Assembly: GCA_029259185.1 (NCBI GenBank)
Contig: JAPDJF010000036.1
Span: 1-37,475 of the forward strand
Reading direction: 5' to 3'
DNA length: 37,475 bases
Origin: Hadesarchaea archaeon
Lineage (GTDB): Archaea; Hadarchaeota; Hadarchaeia; Hadarchaeales; WYZ-LMO6
In this document: positions 1 through 8,009 of the stretch, piece after piece
Layout of the letters: each line of letters opens with the position of its first letter
Position numbering within the stretch: the first letter of the stretch is position 1
Made by a program: the position numbers and the translations under genes
The notes under the pieces: generated by a model
Databases searched by the model: none
The model's input: the letters and a program-made list of their open reading frames with translations, nothing else
Told to the model about the DNA's origin: nothing

Positions 1-168
1 CCTTCCCGTGGCCCTCGCCTGCTCCCTGAGCTGACCGCTCGTCCGGATGATGACCCCTGCGGCCACAGCTGCTACGAGGATGAGGGCTATGAATATGATC
101 AGCGTACCTATCCCGACGATACCCCGCCTCTCTCCGGCAAACCTGCTGGCCAATTTCATCTTTCTCAT
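1..168 (-). CDS. flaB: Archaellin/flagellin (5' part; runs off the window start)
   Basis: Not in the ORF track. Manual translation from ATG 168 (alternative ATG 159) gives [56 protein letters not shown]. This is a class III signal peptide followed by the conserved archaellin N-terminal helix. Confidence 0.93.
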
Positions 169-270
169 TCCATCCTTATTTAACTAAAATGAGGCTTAAA
201 AAAGCTCCTATTCAATTTTAGAATCTGATAATCAGACTTTAGACAAAAAACAGTTAATTTATCTCTTTTT

Positions 271-286
271 TTATCAAAAATGATAA
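271..286. promoter_or_regulatory. Palindromic operator-like site TTATCA-N4-TGATAA upstream of the archaellin gene
   Basis: TTATCA-AAAA-TGATAA read directly; the same motif recurs at 2201, 3711 and 3798. Confidence 0.55.
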
Positions 287-291
287 TTTTC

Positions 292-1410
292 TTATTCTTT
301 CTTTTTAAGCTCCCTCACCGTTTTCTCAAGCTCGGTGGTGACCATGTCCAAGTGCTGGGCGGTCTTGGCCAAACCCCTTATCGCCGCCGTGTGGGATTTA
401 AGGTGCATCGCATATTCCCTCATGGCACTTGAGAAGGAAACGAGCGCACCCTGGGTGTCCGCTGTGCTCCGGAGGGCCATTATTACCCTCTCCTCCAGCT
501 CCTTCCTCCGCTCCATCCAAGGAGGAATGGTGGCGTACAGGAGGAGGGAGGAAATTACTATAATAGCATAAGTCCTCCCGTATGCGGTCTGGAGGAAGAG
601 AAACACGTGGCCGAGTTTTGGAATTTTGAATCCGCTGTACCTCCCTATTACCTCCCCCACGCTTGTTTTGAACGGGTCTGGCCCGGTGGCATCACCTTTC
701 GTGATGAGATACTGATCCTCCACCTTCTCCACTCGGTGGATCAGCTGGGCAGGATAATTGTACCTCCGCTGGAACTCCTCGGATACCTTGAAGGCCACGA
801 CGTCCCCCGGTTTGATATCACTTGGACTTACTCCCTCCAGGTACACCACATCCCCCCTCTCAAGCGTTGGCTCCATACTGCTCGACCCAACCACCATAAA
901 GGGGATCCCCTCCACGTTGTAGATCAGGAGTGAAGCGAATACCAGAATCAACAACCCAACAGCTAGCTTGGAGGCAAGACTCCACCCTTCGAACCTCTTC
1001 CTCACGGGCGGCTCGACCCTGAGGGGAGGGACAACCTCACCCTCGATTTTCGGAACTGAGGGCTTTGGAAGTTTGAACTCCAAGAAATACCGTGGTCGTC
1101 CATCACTCCCCCTTCTCACATAAAAGCGAGGATCTCGGAGAGAACCTCCACCCCTCAGGATATCCTCAACCCGAGCACTCGGGACAACGGAGAAATGAAC
1201 CCACTTCCACTCCGAAGGGGGTCTTCCCTCCTTTGGAAACCTCAACCAAAGGTGAAGTTTCCCTTCTGCCTCATCGAACCTGAACTTAAAGGTTCCTGGG
1301 GGGAGTGTTCGATCCTTTTTCCCCAAAGCTAAGAGACTCTCGGCTATCCCCCCCATCCGTTCGGGTAGCTTGAGTCTGTAGGGGAGAAACGCAGCAGACA
1401 CCTTTACCAA
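292..1410 (-). CDS. sipW: Signal peptidase I, archaeal/SipW (S26B) type, with an extra N-terminal domain and a C-terminal coiled coil
   Basis: A TM segment is followed by VVGSSSMEPTL.RGD, IKPGDVVAF, LIHRV and ITKGDA (Ser-His type S26B motifs), then a second TM and a heptad-rich tail. Start is TTG 1410 (GGAG upstream) or ATG 1356. Confidence 0.85.
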   Translation of the reverse strand: MVKVSAAFLPYRLKLPERMGGIAESLLALGKKDRTLPPGTFKFRFDEAEGKLHLWLRFPKEGRPPSEWKWVHFSVVPSARVEDILRGGGSLRDPRFYVRRGSDGRPRYFLEFKLPKPSVPKIEGEVVPPLRVEPPVRKRFEGWSLASKLAVGLLILVFASLLIYNVEGIPFMVVGSSSMEPTLERGDVVYLEGVSPSDIKPGDVVAFKVSEEFQRRYNYPAQLIHRVEKVEDQYLITKGDATGPDPFKTSVGEVIGRYSGFKIPKLGHVFLFLQTAYGRTYAIIVISSLLLYATIPPWMERRKELEERVIMALRSTADTQGALVSFSSAMREYAMHLKSHTAAIRGLAKTAQHLDMVTTELEKTVRELKKKE

Positions 1411-1564
1411 AGAAAACTCCGCCTTTCCGATTTAAGAGATTTCTTAGAAAAATTTCAACTTTGATGAACTCAAAGCGCTGACCGACTGGCTTGGAGAGTA
1501 AAAGATCCGAGGGTGAATCAAAAGTTAGGGAGAGAGGTCGGTTTCAGAGGCTCCGCCTATCCCC

Positions 1565-2233
1565 TCAGAGGTTCGCGGCTTCCTCGATGTTACAGTAGTT
1601 GACCACGCCCGGATAGCTAGTGTATCCCTCTTTGGCGTAGTAATCACCGCTGTCCAACGCGATGACTAGTGGGTGATCGTGGCTCACGTTGTCGTAAGAG
1701 ATTATGAAAGTCGCAGGACCGCCCACCAGGGTCAACATAACGTTCTCCCCTGCGATGCGTTGCCAGTTATCGTTGTTCTGAAGTTGTTCGACGTTATCGG
1801 CATCTGTACCTATGAACTTGTAAACTGCGATGTTCTCGGTGAAGGATGTATAGTACTCGTTTAGATCCTTACGGTTAACCATTTCAACTTGGATCCACAC
1901 CCCCGTTCTCAACGCCGCATGAGGTCTGATGTAGAAGAGGTTCCCGGCACCTATCCTCCCACCAGTCCCTCCTATCACATTTTCAGGGAAGGAAGGAGCG
2001 TTATCATACGGTCCAACGGCCGAGTTTTCGGTCGTGAGATCTATGACGTCACCTATCCCGGGCGCAGAGTCGATAGGTGTGACGGTGGCTACCCCATAGG
2101 TCGCAGCGTATGCCAAGCCGAAGATCCCGCCCAACAAAATCAGGGTGAAAATGAAGATCAGGTGCTTCCTGTAAGATTTTTTTATCAGCCTAAATCTCCG
2201 ATTATCAAGGTTGAAAATCGATTTTCCACCCAT
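1565..2233 (-). CDS. Secreted cannula (CanA)/TasA-like fibre subunit, minimal core paralogue 1
   Basis: Basic n-region plus hydrophobic signal peptide ending LAYA/A. Strong similarity to 2553..3641 (GPYD..P.FPENVIGGTGGR, WIQVEMVNRK, TSFTEN, DHP.V.ALD.GD..AKEGY, IEEAA). Start moved to ATG 2233 because the track's upstream extension is AT-rich regulatory DNA. Family assignment is inference. Confidence 0.7.
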   Translation of the reverse strand: MGGKSIFNLDNRRFRLIKKSYRKHLIFIFTLILLGGIFGLAYAATYGVATVTPIDSAPGIGDVIDLTTENSAVGPYDNAPSFPENVIGGTGGRIGAGNLFYIRPHAALRTGVWIQVEMVNRKDLNEYYTSFTENIAVYKFIGTDADNVEQLQNNDNWQRIAGENVMLTLVGGPATFIISYDNVSHDHPLVIALDSGDYYAKEGYTSYPGVVNYCNIEEAANL

Positions 2234-2525
2234 TTTTCCGCACCTTCCGAATATTGGGTTATTATGAAACTTAAAAACGGTTTCTATCAGATTATCATGC
2301 GTTAGAATTAAATCTGAGCATGAAAATCCGTTTAAATTGGTTTTTATCCAATTATCATCTTGTATAATTATCAAAGTCTGAAAATCTCTATTAAAAATCA
2401 AATCCGATAATTAATTTTGATTAAAAATTTAGTTGACCCCACCAAAACTTTTTTTACCACACCCACTGAACCCAGAGAACCCACGATTACCTTAACCACA
2501 AACGAAACCAACACGGGTTAACGGG

Positions 2526-2550
2526 TGGAAAGTTGAAGAAAAGAAAAAAT
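2526..2550 (-). terminator. Oligo-U archaeal terminator after paralogue 2
   Basis: The minus strand reads TTTTTCTTTTCTT immediately after the stop at 2553. Confidence 0.45.
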
Positions 2551-2552
2551 GC

Positions 2553-3641
2553 TCAGTACGCCGCTTCCTCGATGCTCAGGTAGTGAGTTATCCCGGGGAA
2601 GGTCCAGTACCCTTCCTTCGCCCAGAAGTCTCCCCTATCCAAAGCCACCACCATTGGGTGGTCAGCTCCCATCGTGGTTGAATGGAATATCCTCACGTAG
2701 TCGATCATCAAACTCGTTCGACCGACGGTCGAATCCGCCTGCCTGAAGCGGAGATGGACGTTTTCCGCTTGATTATCGTTGATCAGAGCTCTGAAGTTGT
2801 AGTTGTCATCCGTGAGCGTGAGAGTGTACACCGTATCGTCGCCCGAGTACGATAGGTTCTCGATGTAAACCCACTGTCCAGCGTCGAAATCCCACAGGTA
2901 GAGCTCTACCTCTTCGTTAGTGCCCTCTATGTGATACTCTATCTGGATCTCGTAGGAGTGATCCCGCGGAACTTCGGTTATGTAGTGGTAGACGTCGAAC
3001 ACATTGTCGGTGTTCTCGTATATGTTCTCATAGTTTCCGTCATCGGCCTGAGCGTTCTCGAAGTCGGTGACGGTTCCACCGATGTTCTCATAGTTATCAA
3101 CGTACGCGTAGCCGGAGTAGACCCTACTCACCTCGAACGTTGCCGGTGCACCTACGAGGGTCAGATAAGCCTCGTCGATTCGCTTCCACATGTTGTCCCA
3201 TACCCACCTCTCGGAGTTATCGCTAACGGCTAGATAAAGTCCGAGGTTCTCGGTGAAGGAGGTCCAGTGTTCATTTATCTCCTTCCGGTTTACCATCTCG
3301 ACTTGGATCCACAACCCCGTGTAAAGTTGAGGTCTGGGTTCGATGAAGAAGATATTCCCTGGAGAGAGCCTGCCTCCCGTGCCCCCTATCACGTTTTCAG
3401 GGAAGTAGGGAAATGTGTCGTACGGACCGATGGTCGTGTTCTCAACGCTCTGATCGTGCACCACTCCTATGTCCGGTGCACCTTGGGGCGGCCCGAGCAC
3501 CGCTACTCCCTGGGTCGCAGCGAAGGCTAGGGCAAAGATCCCGCCGAGTAAAGCGAGCACTAGGAATAACGCATTACGCCTCTTCAGTACCTTCCGCTTC
3601 GCAGAGGCCCAAGCCTTGAAGAATTTTCTTCGCGTTGTCAT
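2553..3641 (-). CDS. Secreted CanA/TasA-like paralogue 2 with a ~150-aa inserted acidic beta-sandwich domain
   Basis: Signal peptide ending LAFA/A. The core aligns with paralogue 1 except for an insertion (~2668-3126) between PATFEVS and ADHPMVVALD, which contains DDGNY...YLWD...QW...IDYVRI. Confidence 0.72.
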   Translation of the reverse strand: MTTRRKFFKAWASAKRKVLKRRNALFLVLALLGGIFALAFAATQGVAVLGPPQGAPDIGVVHDQSVENTTIGPYDTFPYFPENVIGGTGGRLSPGNIFFIEPRPQLYTGLWIQVEMVNRKEINEHWTSFTENLGLYLAVSDNSERWVWDNMWKRIDEAYLTLVGAPATFEVSRVYSGYAYVDNYENIGGTVTDFENAQADDGNYENIYENTDNVFDVYHYITEVPRDHSYEIQIEYHIEGTNEEVELYLWDFDAGQWVYIENLSYSGDDTVYTLTLTDDNYNFRALINDNQAENVHLRFRQADSTVGRTSLMIDYVRIFHSTTMGADHPMVVALDRGDFWAKEGYWTFPGITHYLSIEEAAY

Positions 3642-3687
3642 CTCCGATAACGAATCTTCAGAATCTTTTTTAAGAATGTTTCTCTCA

Positions 3688-3815
3688 AATTATCAAAATT
3701 GTCCACCATAATTATCAAAATTGATATGAATTAGACTCCAATTTGGATTTCAAGCTCTAATTTTGGTGTTCAGATGAAAAAATGATTCTTTTCAGTGATT
3801 ATCAACTGTGATAAT
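3688..3815. promoter_or_regulatory. Cluster of ATTATCA-N4-TGATAAT operator-like sites in the divergent promoter region
   Basis: Perfect ATTATCA-ACTG-TGATAAT at 3798-3815; ATTATCA-AAAT-TGATAT at 3711-3727; direct repeat AATTATCAAAATTG at 3688 and 3710. Confidence 0.6.
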
Positions 3816-3864
3816 TTTATCGAAATACTTTAATGTAGTTTACTAAAGAAAAATTAACGATAAG

Positions 3865-4038
3865 ATGGAACTCGTTGAGAAAAGATGCACGTTCTGCGGG
3901 TACATAAACTACTTCCCGAACCCGCCCCTCCACCCCGAACACCGATGCTTGGAATGCGGCACTATAATCTATCCCAAAGCGATCCCAAAGGCCATGGAAA
4001 TAGCCCGCCCCACCCCCCGGCGTCCACGCAGACTCTAG
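3865..4038 (+). CDS. Small zinc-ribbon protein, 57 aa (CxxC...CxxC)
   Basis: Below the ORF-track cutoff. MELVEKRCTFCGYINYFPNPPLHPEHRCLECGTIIYPKAIPKAMEIARPTPRRPRRL* has two CxxCG knuckles and a basic tail. Confidence 0.75.
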   Translation: MELVEKRCTFCGYINYFPNPPLHPEHRCLECGTIIYPKAIPKAMEIARPTPRRPRRL

Positions 4039-4126
4039 AGATTCAGCTCTGATAATCACTTCCCCATTTTTTTAAATTTACTTAACAAATTTTAACTAAG
4101 GGAATATTTAGGAGGATGCTAGCCCG

Positions 4127-5959
4127 ATGGAAACTCTTCGGAGGAGAAAAGGAACCGTCCTGCTCGTGCTGTTCCTCCTCACGCTCGCGGTGGCTCTCGT
4201 CTACTGCTCGACCTCCGCAGTGTTCACCACCACGCCCGAGAACTTCGCCCCGCGGGTGGCTGAAGTTAAGATGCTCGAGTGGAAGAGCAGGAAGGTGGGA
4301 CCGTACTACCACTTCCCGCCCCCGTACCAATTGTTCCCCCACGGGGTCGCGGCTTACCGCTCCGAGACGGGGAGTGGGGATGACTACCCGAAGTACAGGA
4401 CGTGGAACGGCGCCTACTGGAGTTCGGAGGAGGAACTCCCGGAGAACTTCGGCACCCCTCGCTGGGTGGTGGCCAAACACTTCCCGTTCTACTGCGAGCG
4501 CCTGGAGGAGTGGATATTCGTGGTGTGTGATGTTGAGGGGTGGCTCAGCGCGTACGTGTGGGACGGGGAGAACTGGATCATCGAAAACCGTTTCGCCCAG
4601 ACGGTGACCATCAACCGGGCATTCGACCTAGCGTATGAGCAGAAGTCCGGCGACGCCCTGCTCGTCTACTCGACAGGGGGGATTGACCCAGAGCTCAAGT
4701 ACAGGATCTGGAACGGGGAGAACTGGTCGTCCCCAGCCAGCTTGGACCTCACCACCGAGGACGAGGTGGTGAGGCTTGTCCGGATGGACTCCAACCCGCT
4801 TTCGGACGAGATATGCATGGTGGTGGTGAACGCCGCTCCCACTGCCATAGGGGTGGTCTGGGATGGGCAGAGCTGGGGAAACGAGACCATGCTCGATGTC
4901 GCTTCCGGCAGGGCTTACTCATCCACCACGTGGTCCGCGGACCTAGCTTATGAACAGACCACGGGGCACTGCGTGGTCGTGTACAATGATTTCTTGGTCG
5001 CGGCCCAGTTCGGGAGAACCCGTTCGAGGGTGTGGGACGGTACGGATTGGAGCGGATTTACCACCATAACCGATGATTACTCCACCGTGATCGAGGTGGA
5101 GCCCCAGCCTGGGTCCGAAAACATCATGCTTGTCGTGATCCTAGGAAGCACCTCCACCTACGGGAGGGACCTGTGGGACGGGGGTGCCTGGGTGGGGCTC
5201 GAGGACACGACGATCGCGAGCACCTACCCCGAGAACCGGACCTATGACCTGGCGTGGGAACCCGAGGGGGAGGAGCTACTGTGGGCATACCAGGACGACG
5301 CGAACCCGGGGACCCTCCAGTACCAGACGTGGACCCCCGCTGGAGGGTGGGGGACCCTCAGCGGTTCGATCCAGACGGGAGGGAGTCCAACCTGGGTGGA
5401 GCTCATCCCGGGATCCGAGCACCCGAGGGACACGGGGGTGCTCGGGGCATACCTGACCGACAACTTCGACCTGGGGGGTGCGTGGTGGACGGGAGACGAG
5501 CTGGTGAACCTCGGCTCCCAGCGGTTCACCGCGCTAGCGGGAGAGAGGTACACCAAGGTGTTCGACCTCACGAACCAGGGCGTGGACCACGGGAACCTCT
5601 ACCTCATAAGACCAAGCCCGCAGTACCGCCGGGGGCTGTGGATCCAAGTCGAGCTCGTGAACCGGTGGGAGATAGACAATTTCTACCTGGTGTTCGAGGA
5701 GAACGTGGGGGTGTACCGCGTGACCACCGACAACTCCGAGCTCTGGGAGAACGAGGAATACTGGGTGCCCGTGCAGCAGGAGAACATGAGCAAGTCGGGC
5801 AAACCCATCGAGTTCCAGGTTCCGGAGGTGTACGTGAGCTACGACTACCCGCTCGTGATCGCGATCGACAACATGTACTACGAGGTGAGACCTGAGAACG
5901 CCGAAAACGTGTGCGTGGGAGCGTACCACTACGTAAGCGTGGAGGAGGGAGACTATTGA
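4127..5959 (+). CDS. Secreted CanA/TasA-like paralogue 3 with a ~420-aa inserted repeat (probable beta-propeller) domain
   Basis: Signal peptide with SipW-like STSAVFT. The core is split into VGPYYHFP and GNLYLIRP..GLWIQVELVNR..ENVGVY..DYPLVIAID..YVSVEEGDY. The insert holds eight ~50-aa W(D/N/T)G..W repeats. Confidence 0.75.
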   Translation: METLRRRKGTVLLVLFLLTLAVALVYCSTSAVFTTTPENFAPRVAEVKMLEWKSRKVGPYYHFPPPYQLFPHGVAAYRSETGSGDDYPKYRTWNGAYWSSEEELPENFGTPRWVVAKHFPFYCERLEEWIFVVCDVEGWLSAYVWDGENWIIENRFAQTVTINRAFDLAYEQKSGDALLVYSTGGIDPELKYRIWNGENWSSPASLDLTTEDEVVRLVRMDSNPLSDEICMVVVNAAPTAIGVVWDGQSWGNETMLDVASGRAYSSTTWSADLAYEQTTGHCVVVYNDFLVAAQFGRTRSRVWDGTDWSGFTTITDDYSTVIEVEPQPGSENIMLVVILGSTSTYGRDLWDGGAWVGLEDTTIASTYPENRTYDLAWEPEGEELLWAYQDDANPGTLQYQTWTPAGGWGTLSGSIQTGGSPTWVELIPGSEHPRDTGVLGAYLTDNFDLGGAWWTGDELVNLGSQRFTALAGERYTKVFDLTNQGVDHGNLYLIRPSPQYRRGLWIQVELVNRWEIDNFYLVFEENVGVYRVTTDNSELWENEEYWVPVQQENMSKSGKPIEFQVPEVYVSYDYPLVIAIDNMYYEVRPENAENVCVGAYHYVSVEEGDY

Positions 5960-6035: not shown

Positions 6036-6584
6036 ATGGACTTCCTGATGGAGATCTTGGTGGTACTCGTGATCGCGCTCTTCGTGATAGTGCTGATCGA
6101 CATACTCAGGGGAAAGAAAACTGTCTACCCGAGAGACCTCTGGAAGCTCGTTCCCTCTGCCTCCGATCTTCCAGGATCGGGATGGGGGCTGATAGGGGAG
6201 TGGTGGCTCCCTTGGGTCGATGTGGTGTGGAAAAACGCGGTTGACAAGAACCCTTTAGAATCCGGGTACGAGGAAGGGTTCATGAACCTGTTCGAAAGGG
6301 GGGAGGAGCGAGTAGCCTTCTGCATTCTCAGATTCACGTCGAGCGAACTCGCCGCCAAAGCTTTCTCGGGGATCCGTGCAGAGTGGGGAGACAAGGAACT
6401 TTACGGGGTTTCGGTGGGGGAGGAATCGATCGGCCTATACCTCAGATCAAACGATGCGGATGGCATACTGTTCCGGGAGGGGGAGCTAGTGGCCTTCGTG
6501 TTGCTTGGTAAACCCGGGGTTCGCAGGGGGGAATCGCTAAAGTTCGCAGATCGTTTTGTGAAAATCATATGGGGGCTCGGATAG
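6036..6584 (+). CDS. Hypothetical protein with an N-terminal membrane anchor
   Basis: 182 aa, single N-terminal hydrophobic helix, co-oriented downstream of paralogue 3. Confidence 0.7.
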   Translation: MDFLMEILVVLVIALFVIVLIDILRGKKTVYPRDLWKLVPSASDLPGSGWGLIGEWWLPWVDVVWKNAVDKNPLESGYEEGFMNLFERGEERVAFCILRFTSSELAAKAFSGIRAEWGDKELYGVSVGEESIGLYLRSNDADGILFREGELVAFVLLGKPGVRRGESLKFADRFVKIIWGLG

Positions 6585-7028: not shown

Positions 7029-8009
7029 ATGGAAATCTCAAAGATGGGGGAAAGGAAGCTAGTGGAACTCGCCAAGCGTGTTTTCAAAACCCCCCGCTCC
7101 GTGAAAGTTGGCATAGGTGACGACGGGGCTGTTATTTCTCTGGGCAAGCATGAATTAGTGGTGACCACGGATATGCTCGCCTCTGGCACGGATTTCCCAT
7201 CAGGAACAACACCCTTCCACATGGGATGGAAGGCCGTAGTGGCAAACCTCAGCGACTTGGCCGCCATGGGAGCGAGGCCCTTGGGAATTCTCTTTTCGTT
7301 GGGCTTGCCGGGAACTCTGGAAAGGGAATTCGTTGAAGAGCTACTGAGGGGCATGAAAAGGTCCGCCGAAGAGCACGGAACCTGCGTCATAGGGGGGGAC
7401 TTCGGGGAATCTCCAGAAGTAACGATATGCGGTACGGCGGTGGGGAAGATAGAGGATGGAAAAGCTTTGAAGAGGAGTGGGGCCAAACCGGGCGATCTCC
7501 TGGCTATCACGGGGGAGCCCGGATGTGCCGCAGCCGGGTTGGAGATCCTCAACCTAAAGATGAAGGGTCACCGAAAACTCGTGGAGTCCTTCCTGAAGCC
7601 CCGTGCTAGGCTGAGGGAGGGAGTGATTCTCGCACGAAGGGGGTGGGCCACTTCTGCCATAGACGTTTCAGATGGGCTCATCAGGGACATGTGGAACCTC
7701 TCAAGGGGGAGCGGGGTAAAACTCGTGCTCGAACGTGAAAAAATTCCAGTCTCTCCGGCCCTCCTGAGGCTCACCTCCAAGCTGGGGAGATCCGCATGGG
7801 ATTTCGTGCTCTACGGAGGAGAGGACTTCGAGCTCATCTTCACGGTGTCACCAAGGCGGTGGGACGATGTCGAGAGGATGCTCGGAAAACTGGGAACGAA
7901 AGTGAGCGTGGTGGGGAGGGTAGAGAAGGGAAGGGGTGTATTCCTCCAAGAGGATGGAAAGACGATGAGAGTTCGAGATTTCGGCTACGAGCACTTCACC
8001 CATGGATAG
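7029..8009 (+). CDS. thiL: Thiamine-monophosphate kinase
   Basis: GIGDDGA, TTDML, NLSDLAAMGARP, IGGD, AIDVSDGL, GGEDFEL. Confidence 0.95.
   Translation: MEISKMGERKLVELAKRVFKTPRSVKVGIGDDGAVISLGKHELVVTTDMLASGTDFPSGTTPFHMGWKAVVANLSDLAAMGARPLGILFSLGLPGTLEREFVEELLRGMKRSAEEHGTCVIGGDFGESPEVTICGTAVGKIEDGKALKRSGAKPGDLLAITGEPGCAAAGLEILNLKMKGHRKLVESFLKPRARLREGVILARRGWATSAIDVSDGLIRDMWNLSRGSGVKLVLEREKIPVSPALLRLTSKLGRSAWDFVLYGGEDFELIFTVSPRRWDDVERMLGKLGTKVSVVGRVEKGRGVFLQEDGKTMRVRDFGYEHFTHG

Follow-up and report, generated by a model that had tools for sequence, protein, structure and literature searches.

The DNA analysed here, hereafter the window, is a 37,475-nucleotide contig of a Hadesarchaea archaeon (GenBank JAPDJF010000036.1, assembly GCA_029259185.1), and near its start lies a cluster of genes for three related secreted proteins and a signal peptidase that we interpret as a probable extracellular filament locus. 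An initial annotation had placed four long open reading frames (ORFs) between positions 292 and 5959, namely three signal peptide-bearing genes with shared core motifs beside an S26B peptidase, and all four genes were found where it had put them (Table 1; the ORF of the first subunit gene, paralogue 1, spans 1565-2401 on the reverse strand). The unit exceeds these limits, since a gene for a 182-amino-acid (aa) protein and the start of an archaellin gene flank the four genes. The genome to which the window belongs (G000) measures 1.27 Mb, is 95% complete and has a GC content of 0.52. The NCBI taxonomy places Hadarchaeota in the kingdom Methanobacteriati, that is, outside Thermoproteota, which bears out the annotation's remark that the lineage falls outside the known range of cannulae, the extracellular tubes of Pyrodictium. 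Window DNA occurs in sequencing runs labelled hydrothermal vent metagenome (five DNA data sets from two studies), and no RNA data set is among those listed as carrying it.

Table 1. Genes and repeated motifs of the candidate filament locus (positions in the window).
Feature	Position	Strand	Basis
Archaellin fragment, N-terminal 56 codons	1-168	-	PF01917, E 1.3e-11; ORF open at 3' end
Two TGATAAT heptamers, between peptidase stop and archaellin start	226-287		
S26B signal peptidase I, 372 aa	292-1410	-	TIGR02228
Paralogue 1, 222-aa precursor, candidate major subunit	1565-2233	-	Homologue starts and Shine-Dalgarno-like box
Four TGATAAT heptamers, at and upstream of paralogue 1 start	2201-2373		
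Paralogue 2, 362 aa, candidate decorated minor subunit	2553-3641	-	Alignment to paralogue 1
Five TGATAAT heptamers in the 485-bp divergent spacer between paralogues 2 and 3	3689-4056		
Paralogue 3, 610 aa, candidate tip, adhesin or anchor subunit	4127-5959	+	N-terminal and core matches
182-aa protein with N-terminal hydrophobic helix, candidate accessory factor or anchor	6036-6584	+	Syntenic G023 orthologue

On sequence similarity far above chance, the three secreted proteins are paralogues. Paralogue 1 shares 52% identity with paralogue 2 over 162 aa (E 7e-55) and 42% identity with paralogue 3 over 98 aa of the C-terminal core (E 3e-21), with a separate N-terminal match to the latter (E 2e-05). 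The motifs that had been listed as common to the three (GPY..P, GN...I.P, G.WIQVE.VNR, EN...Y, D.P.V.A.D and a C-terminal Y...EE) all occupy invariant columns of the three-way alignment. The true start of paralogue 1 is the ATG at 2233 and not the ORF end at 2401, which gives a precursor of 222 aa; four homologues of 220-224 aa begin at the equivalent methionine, and a Shine-Dalgarno-like box (GGAAGGTG) stands just before this ATG. Residues 1-43 (2105-2233) form the signal peptide, which is probably cleaved after AYA to leave a mature protein of 179 aa (1568-2104) with an isoelectric point (pI) of 4.24. All three mature paralogues are acidic (each pI 4.2-4.3), and the alignment of the subunit family shows invariant acidic columns.

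The second and third paralogues carry insertions. Paralogue 2 keeps the signal peptide, N-terminal segment and core and adds a beta-rich insertion of 153 aa (2667-3125), which replaces the core loop that reads YDNVSH in paralogue 1. In paralogue 3, the signal peptide and the family N-terminal segment through GPY..P are followed by an insertion of about 410 aa (4310-5536) and then by the C-terminal part of the jelly-roll core; the N-terminal segment is thus retained despite the distance of about 410 aa between it and the core. This larger insertion consists of seven to eight alignable repeats of about 50 aa with the motif W(D/N)GxxW, spaced 47-58 aa apart, a repeat pattern from which we label it a candidate propeller-like module. 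Neither insertion matched any Pfam family or PDB sequence. Searches of the Protein Atlas with the two insertions returned unnamed clusters, the only leads for paralogue 2, together with minority families that we treat as leads only (AF_1625_C in 25% of one cluster, and BNR_4 in 12% of another, the latter being the sole named lead for paralogue 3). Paralogue 3 is 39% identical over 602 aa to its orthologue in another Hadarchaeota genome, G023 (E 1e-108). Its gene also stands apart in composition, with a GC content of 0.615 and a third-position GC content (GC3) of 0.84 against a GC3 of 0.58-0.69 in the neighbouring genes and the genome GC content of 0.52, which may point to another origin or to a strong bias in codon use.

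The hydrophobic region and AxA motif of the signal peptide (LLGGIF..AYA) have a mean top-residue frequency of 0.74 across the family, compared with 0.65-0.68 for mature residues 1-23 and 0.72 for the core. The signal peptide is therefore conserved like a folded core and unlike ordinary signal peptides, which points to recognition by a dedicated peptidase. The neighbouring gene product is an archaeal or endoplasmic reticulum (ER)-type signal peptidase I (MEROPS S26B) by its profile match and catalytic residues: it scores 82.4 bits against TIGR02228 (cut-off 51.85), its best solved relatives in a PDB sequence search are SEC11A/C (E ~3e-13), and Ser178 (in SMEP), His225 (in IHRV), which takes the place of the lysine of bacterial enzymes, and G239-D240 (in KGD, 238-240) are invariant in all five aligned peptidases. 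The label SipW that it had been given survives in part. An S26B peptidase does lie beside the subunit genes, but with NF046067, the SipW equivalog model, the score is 42.6 bits (cut-off 190), and SipW is only an analogy for its function.

The peptidase has an uncommon layout, with an N-terminal domain of about 145 aa, a transmembrane helix, the catalytic domain, a second hydrophobic segment and a helical C-terminal tail of 74 aa, the hydrophobic and transmembrane segments having been assigned by eye from the alignment. The N-terminal domain is conserved in the orthologues of G023 and of a further genome, G014, and the tail in all four linked peptidases (that of the window and three orthologues). 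Neither part matched a Pfam family, and a word-based homologue search with the N-terminal domain retrieved its own protein only. Since other contigs of the genome encode two more signal peptidases, both of ordinary size (157 and 183 aa), the copy in the window is an extra and specialised one.

Evidence on the nature of the subunits came from structure prediction. An AlphaFold2 model of mature paralogue 1 built on a 25-sequence alignment had a mean predicted local distance difference test (pLDDT) of 91.3 and a predicted template-modelling score (pTM) of 0.86, with an all-beta core; the first 10 mature residues had a pLDDT below 50 in this monomer model. Comparison of the model with the PDB by Foldseek gave 1131 matches at E ≤ 10, and all five of those at E ≤ 0.001 were cannula proteins: the CanA filament (7UII), CanX (9H8B), the CanA monomer (9DLO), Hyper2 (9BAB) and K1-CanA (9HDI). 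These matches had E values of 1.6e-05 to 2e-04, template-modelling (TM) scores of 0.47-0.63, a probability of 1.00 and identities of 12-15%. The sixth match was AbpA, the bundling pilin of Pyrobaculum (E 1e-03, TM 0.36-0.37), and the remainder had E values of 2e-02 or worse; no TasA or AbpX chain was among the matches listed. An earlier and poor model from a 6-sequence alignment (pLDDT 59.6) yielded the identical top five. The CanA-like fold that had been proposed for the locus is thus supported by two predicted models.

Sequence profiles gave a fainter signal in the same direction. A 23-sequence profile searched against 177,635 PDB sequences ranked CanA first (E 0.0055) and CanX second (E 0.23), and in this alignment the strand-helix segment WIQVEMVNR...Y of paralogue 1 is matched to the CanA segment VTLANAEQLKPYF. 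This likeness to CanA had been noted in the initial annotation and is reproduced here, in contrast to a second one, that of GDYYAKEG, which is not. Direct PDB sequence searches with paralogues 1-3 returned nothing meaningful. The mature N-terminus (ATYGVATVTP...) fits the published description of the cannula donor strand as amphipathic, with small hydrophobic residues, an aromatic residue, a central glycine and proline (PMC12518558), in respect of its small hydrophobic residues, glycine and proline. In CanA itself the first 19 residues are reported to be disordered in the monomer and to form the donor strand (PMC12518558). A homo-oligomer prediction with three copies of mature paralogue 1 gave scores of 0.22 and 0.20 (the mark being 0.42, with controls not run), which weigh neither way.

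The subunit family is rare. A 5.8-billion word-indexed collection held six matches, two of them the window's own, and the subunit profile found 27 matches at E ≤ 0.001 among 1.84 billion representatives; a broader profile found 14, none named and none with a Pfam domain. Among 66 Hadarchaeota genomes the family is present in four, the window's included (three of the 26 of high quality), and in none of the other five genomes of the window's own taxonomic family. A collection of species-representative genomes contained two loci only, both from Candidatus Hadarchaeota; these are the loci of G023 and G014, genomes assigned to the same taxonomic order as the window.

Family members occur at five loci in the four genomes, with the peptidase adjacent in four of the five and archaellins in three. 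The contig from G023 (C46) mirrors the window gene for gene and encodes a 179-aa membrane protein, a 621-aa orthologue of paralogue 3, two subunits of about 220 aa, a 366-aa peptidase and two archaellins. The 182-aa protein of the window is 34% identical to its syntenic orthologue there (E 7e-29) and belongs to no Pfam family, DUF5305 included. Contig C9 of G014 brings together three archaellin genes, a single subunit gene and the gene for a peptidase of 368 aa. A 3.2-kb contig of G015 (C48), too short for its archaellin neighbours to be judged, encodes two distant members and, after them, a peptidase of 391 aa that has the tail and lacks the N-terminal domain. The proposed linkage of subunits to an S26B peptidase is supported by these counts, and the subunit family and the peptidase with the special tail co-occur in the same four of the 66 genomes. 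A scan of metagenomes yielded one locus, a contig of 2213 bases (L026) that is near-identical to the paralogue 2/3 region of the window and thus provides no new synteny; paralogue 2 is split there into ORFs of 152 and 192 aa, for which a frameshift, a stop codon or faulty assembly could be responsible.

The non-coding DNA of the locus contains repeated heptamers. All 11 copies of TGATAAT in the window lie within 226-4056, against an expected 3.7, and at least 11 copies occurred in none of 100 shuffles, although whole sources were shuffled and the spacers, at 33-38% GC, are rich in AT. No copy occurs in the window's remaining low-GC stretches. The copies in the spacer between paralogues 2 and 3 include ATTATCA-N4-TGATAAT (3798-3815), an inverted pair. 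With 112 copies in the whole genome the heptamer shows no overall enrichment, yet the only two clusters of at least three copies are in this locus. At two orthologous loci the heptamer occurs 15 times (expected 2.7) and 19 times (expected 2.9), mostly upstream of the subunit genes and of each archaellin gene, with arrays at 7215-7264 and 10417-11579 in L017 and at 3176-3250, 5289-5418 and 6787-7119 in L019. An archaellin start on contig C35 of the window's genome is likewise preceded by two copies (7351-7370). From the positions of these arrays we propose that TGATAAT is a candidate operator that couples the fibre genes to the archaellins. A scan for sigma-70 promoters and terminators was disregarded, as its models are bacterial and not applicable to archaea.

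The archaellin fragment itself, directly downstream of the peptidase, runs off the start of the contig, and its PF01917 match lies at C16:4-123. The window (1-168, reverse strand) and contig C35 (7390-7603, forward strand) each terminate within an archaellin gene, and the two genes encode the same N-terminal residues as far as they can be compared. The assembly seems to be broken in repeated archaellin paralogues, and the locus of the window therefore probably continues into an archaellin cluster.

Several published systems resemble the locus in different respects. The closest in fold are CanA and CanX of Pyrodictium abyssi and Hyper2 of Hyperthermus, the best and only strong structural matches to paralogue 1. 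Like the window's proteins, cannula proteins have Sec-type signal peptides, are acidic, occur as clustered paralogues with insertions (domain-insertion paralogues are described as clustered in P. abyssi; PMC12518558) and, as reported for CanA, have an N-terminus that is disordered in the monomer; for the window's protein this is seen in the predicted model. The window family differs from them in its occurrence in Hadarchaeota, in its distance (12-15% identity, TM 0.47-0.63) and in the dedicated peptidase beside the subunits. CanX homologues are described as confined to Pyrodictiaceae and CanX-like proteins as found mainly in Thermoproteota (Sleutel et al., 2025; PMC12518558), and the same account reports their gene neighbourhoods as free of dedicated signal peptidases, whereas AbpX and TasA homologues are portrayed as widespread and often adjoining a signal peptidase I (PMC12518558).

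In organisation, the locus recalls the TasA-like proteins of archaea and the TasA-TapA-SipW system of Bacillus subtilis, in which an ER-type signal peptidase also lies beside major and accessory subunits with a conserved signal peptide; it departs from that system in the lack of a PF12389 match, in a SipW equivalog score below cut-off and in the absence of any TasA chain among the Foldseek matches listed. It also shares a signal peptidase I, major and minor pilins, a tip protein and/or anchor and acidic subunits with the AbpX/AbpA pili and with haloarchaeal Tafi (TafA/E, TafC, TafD, TafF and TafG). Tafi are described with the peptidase components TafD/TafG, a tip protein and a membrane anchor (PMC12337348), and abpX loci with a ten-transmembrane signal peptidase, a DUF5305 accessory protein, minor subunits and tip proteins, the AbpX-type subunits being acidic with a pI of about 4 (doi 10.64898/2026.01.04.697558). 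Unlike the peptidase of abpX loci, that of the window has two hydrophobic segments (by eye), a cytoplasmic N-terminal domain and a helical tail, and Pfam searches of the locus proteins gave no match to DUF5305. By analogy with Tafi, the 182-aa membrane protein could be a TafF-like anchor.

Taken with these parallels, our results make it likely that the locus is a self-contained extracellular filament module of the TasA superfamily, with a subunit fold nearest to CanA, CanX and Hyper2. They suggest a new CanA-like subunit branch, linked to a peptidase and found outside Thermoproteota, within the known TasA superfamily. Given a CanA-like predicted fold and weak sequence support, we file the family as a divergent branch of that superfamily and not as part of the CanA family proper. 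Starting from the computed paralogy, peptidase type, predicted fold, linkage, co-occurrence and motif clustering, we infer the cleavage site, donor-strand polymerisation, cation dependence, paralogue roles and regulation in the following model. The three acidic pre-proteins would be exported via Sec by means of their conserved LLGGIF..AYA signal peptides, and the neighbouring S26B peptidase, with Ser178 and His225 as its catalytic pair, would cut after AYA. The freed N-terminal segment, rich in glycine, alanine, valine and threonine, would then act as a donor strand that enters the jelly-roll of the next subunit, without a chaperone and possibly with the assistance of divalent cations. Paralogue 1 would be the major subunit and paralogue 2 a minor subunit that displays its inserted beta domain on the filament surface, while paralogue 3 may serve as tip, adhesin or anchor with its large repeat module, which would be propeller-like. 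The small membrane protein encoded at 6036-6584 could act as an accessory factor. Expression would probably be coordinated with that of the adjacent archaellin genes through the common TGATAAT arrays.

Several observations weigh against this interpretation. None of paralogues 1-3 reaches the cut-off of a Pfam or NCBIfam model, including the Peptidase_M73/TasA and SipW-cognate signal-peptide models, and none of 23 aligned family members reaches a Pfam cut-off; PF12389 (Peptidase_M73) matches neither the three paralogues (E ≤ 1) nor the 23 members (E ≤ 0.1). The absence of a PF12389 match in the whole genome at E ≤ 1 also led us to reject a canonical TasA elsewhere in it. Homology to cannula proteins is marginal at the sequence level, as paralogue 1 alone and the 6-sequence profile found neither CanA nor CanX among PDB sequences, and the structural matches, with root-mean-square deviations of 6.7-10.7 Å at TM scores of 0.47-0.63, indicate a fold that is related, not close. 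Because published cannula loci are described without a dedicated peptidase, the analogy at the level of the system is with TasA, AbpX and Tafi and not with cannulae. One family member is an orphan on contig C1 of G014, among ribosomal and other housekeeping genes and with no adjoining peptidase. The peptidase-tail profile matches the same four of 66 genomes, with one copy each and always at the subunit locus, and has no match in the other 62, but the four matches are the sequences behind the model, so that the 62 misses alone are informative. Finally, the filament, the cleavage and the calcium binding are here predictions from the genes. Weak matches of locus proteins or domains to Lipocalin (E 0.012), AFP_2 and CCDC85 were sub-threshold and were dismissed.

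A narrower form of the filament interpretation is that the subunits build true cannulae, rigid hollow tubes of about 25 nm that join cells as in Pyrodictium and Hyperthermus. The proteins that head the structural matches are all cannula formers and precede the thin-fibre protein AbpA, with no TasA or AbpX chain among the matches listed, and the acidic proteins, the vent origin of the runs that contain the DNA and the insertion-bearing paralogues reminiscent of P. abyssi gene clusters would all suit such tubes. Tubes, however, need lateral calcium-mediated contacts, conserved Asp/Glu calcium sites (types I-III) and calcium-triggered assembly being marks of the cannula family. Identity to CanA is 12-15%, and the locus is organised like those of thin-fibre systems, with the nearby dedicated peptidase that published cannula genes are described as lacking. 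We therefore consider true cannulae unlikely, even though the computed data appear compatible with either shape, a tube or a thin fibre.

It is less likely still that the three proteins are non-polymerising jelly-roll binding proteins of the cell surface or secretome, which would act like lectins or adhesins and whose one special requirement would be a specialised signal peptidase. Carbohydrate-binding modules often have a jelly-roll fold, and CBM32 and sialidase lectin domains do appear lower down among the Foldseek matches; the insertion of paralogue 2 and that of paralogue 3, with its repeats, resemble binding modules, and polymerisation of the subunits is a prediction. Yet the filament subunits stand apart in the structural comparison: five matches to them reach E ≤ 2e-04, whereas those to lectin-like domains lie at 2e-02 or worse. 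A conserved N-terminal segment that is disordered in the monomer and kept in paralogue 3 has no obvious role in a monomeric lectin, and clusters of several paralogues with a peptidase are a published hallmark of TasA-superfamily filaments.

That the proteins are archaellum accessories (a sheath, an anchor or a surface decoration) with no filament of their own is very improbable, for although archaellin genes adjoin the cluster in three of five loci and TGATAAT arrays precede both archaellin and subunit genes, archaellins are described as type IV pilin-like and processed by prepilin peptidase rather than signal peptidase I (PMC12337348), no archaellum component is known to have this fold, and 62 of 66 Hadarchaeota genomes lack the module (archaella among those 62 were not counted).

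The preferred reading, a TasA-superfamily filament with a CanA-like subunit, has several implications. In the published account, cannulae and CanA-like proteins are peculiar to hyperthermophilic Thermoproteota and assemble by themselves, with no dedicated processing (PMC12518558), and the CanA-like fold family now appears in another archaeal phylum, hardly any members of which are in culture and for which no surface structures have been described. The locus bridges two branches of the superfamily, as it combines a protomer of the cannula type with an organisation, a peptidase plus minor subunits, that is typical of TasA, AbpX and Tafi. Its mature subunit of 179 aa could be a target for assembly and cryo-electron microscopy studies and possibly a thermostable biomaterial. 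The signal peptidase, with its domain location read from the sequence, has unprecedented cytoplasmic domains, and a short cis-element common to the subunit and archaellin genes could open the way to surface-structure regulation in an uncultured lineage.

A bolder proposal, which we put forward as a long shot, is that vent Hadarchaeota possess a mobile or often-lost five-gene module for cannula-like tubes or matrix, in which donor-strand release is gated by the peptidase, its N-terminal domain and coiled-coil tail sensing the intracellular state or being coupled to it, and in which one TGATAAT-binding regulator also governs the archaellins. If true, these would be the first cannula-like tubes or matrix outside Thermoproteota, and the system would amount to an archaeal switch between motility and matrix, comparable to the way in which Bacillus controls flagella and tapA-sipW-tasA. 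Among the papers listed by our literature searches, none joins Hadarchaeota to TasA or cannulae, though published figures or supplements may show Hadarchaeota hits.

Some further observations concern the surroundings of these genes. Within the AT-rich spacer upstream of paralogue 3, a GC-rich island contains a 57-aa ORF (3865-4038, forward strand) with two CxxC pairs and sub-threshold zinc-ribbon matches (best zf-ChsH2, E 8e-05), for which no counterpart was found in the spacer of G023. Downstream of the G023 archaellins (L017, 13243-15576), a secreted protein of 777 aa is encoded that combines four PKD-like domains with a membrane helix at its C-terminus; it may be a further surface component of that neighbourhood. 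One protein of the representative library (P0018, 1809 aa) has 17 separate stretches that match positions 170-196 of the family profile (E 3.9e-10), and it may be a repeat protein derived from one strand-loop element of the subunit fold. Ahead of the 157-aa signal peptidase of the window's genome (contig C13; L024, 515-1815), a protein of 254 aa is encoded whose N-terminus is CcdA-like (PF07362, E 6e-08) and which also has a hydrophobic helix and a region rich in threonine, alanine and proline; the two may form a further pair of peptidase and substrate. The third signal peptidase (contig C1 of the same genome) is adjoined by a 361-aa ORF (L025, 1787-2872) with a C-terminal CxxC...CxxC, which by eye looks like a transposon protein of the TnpB/IS605 type.

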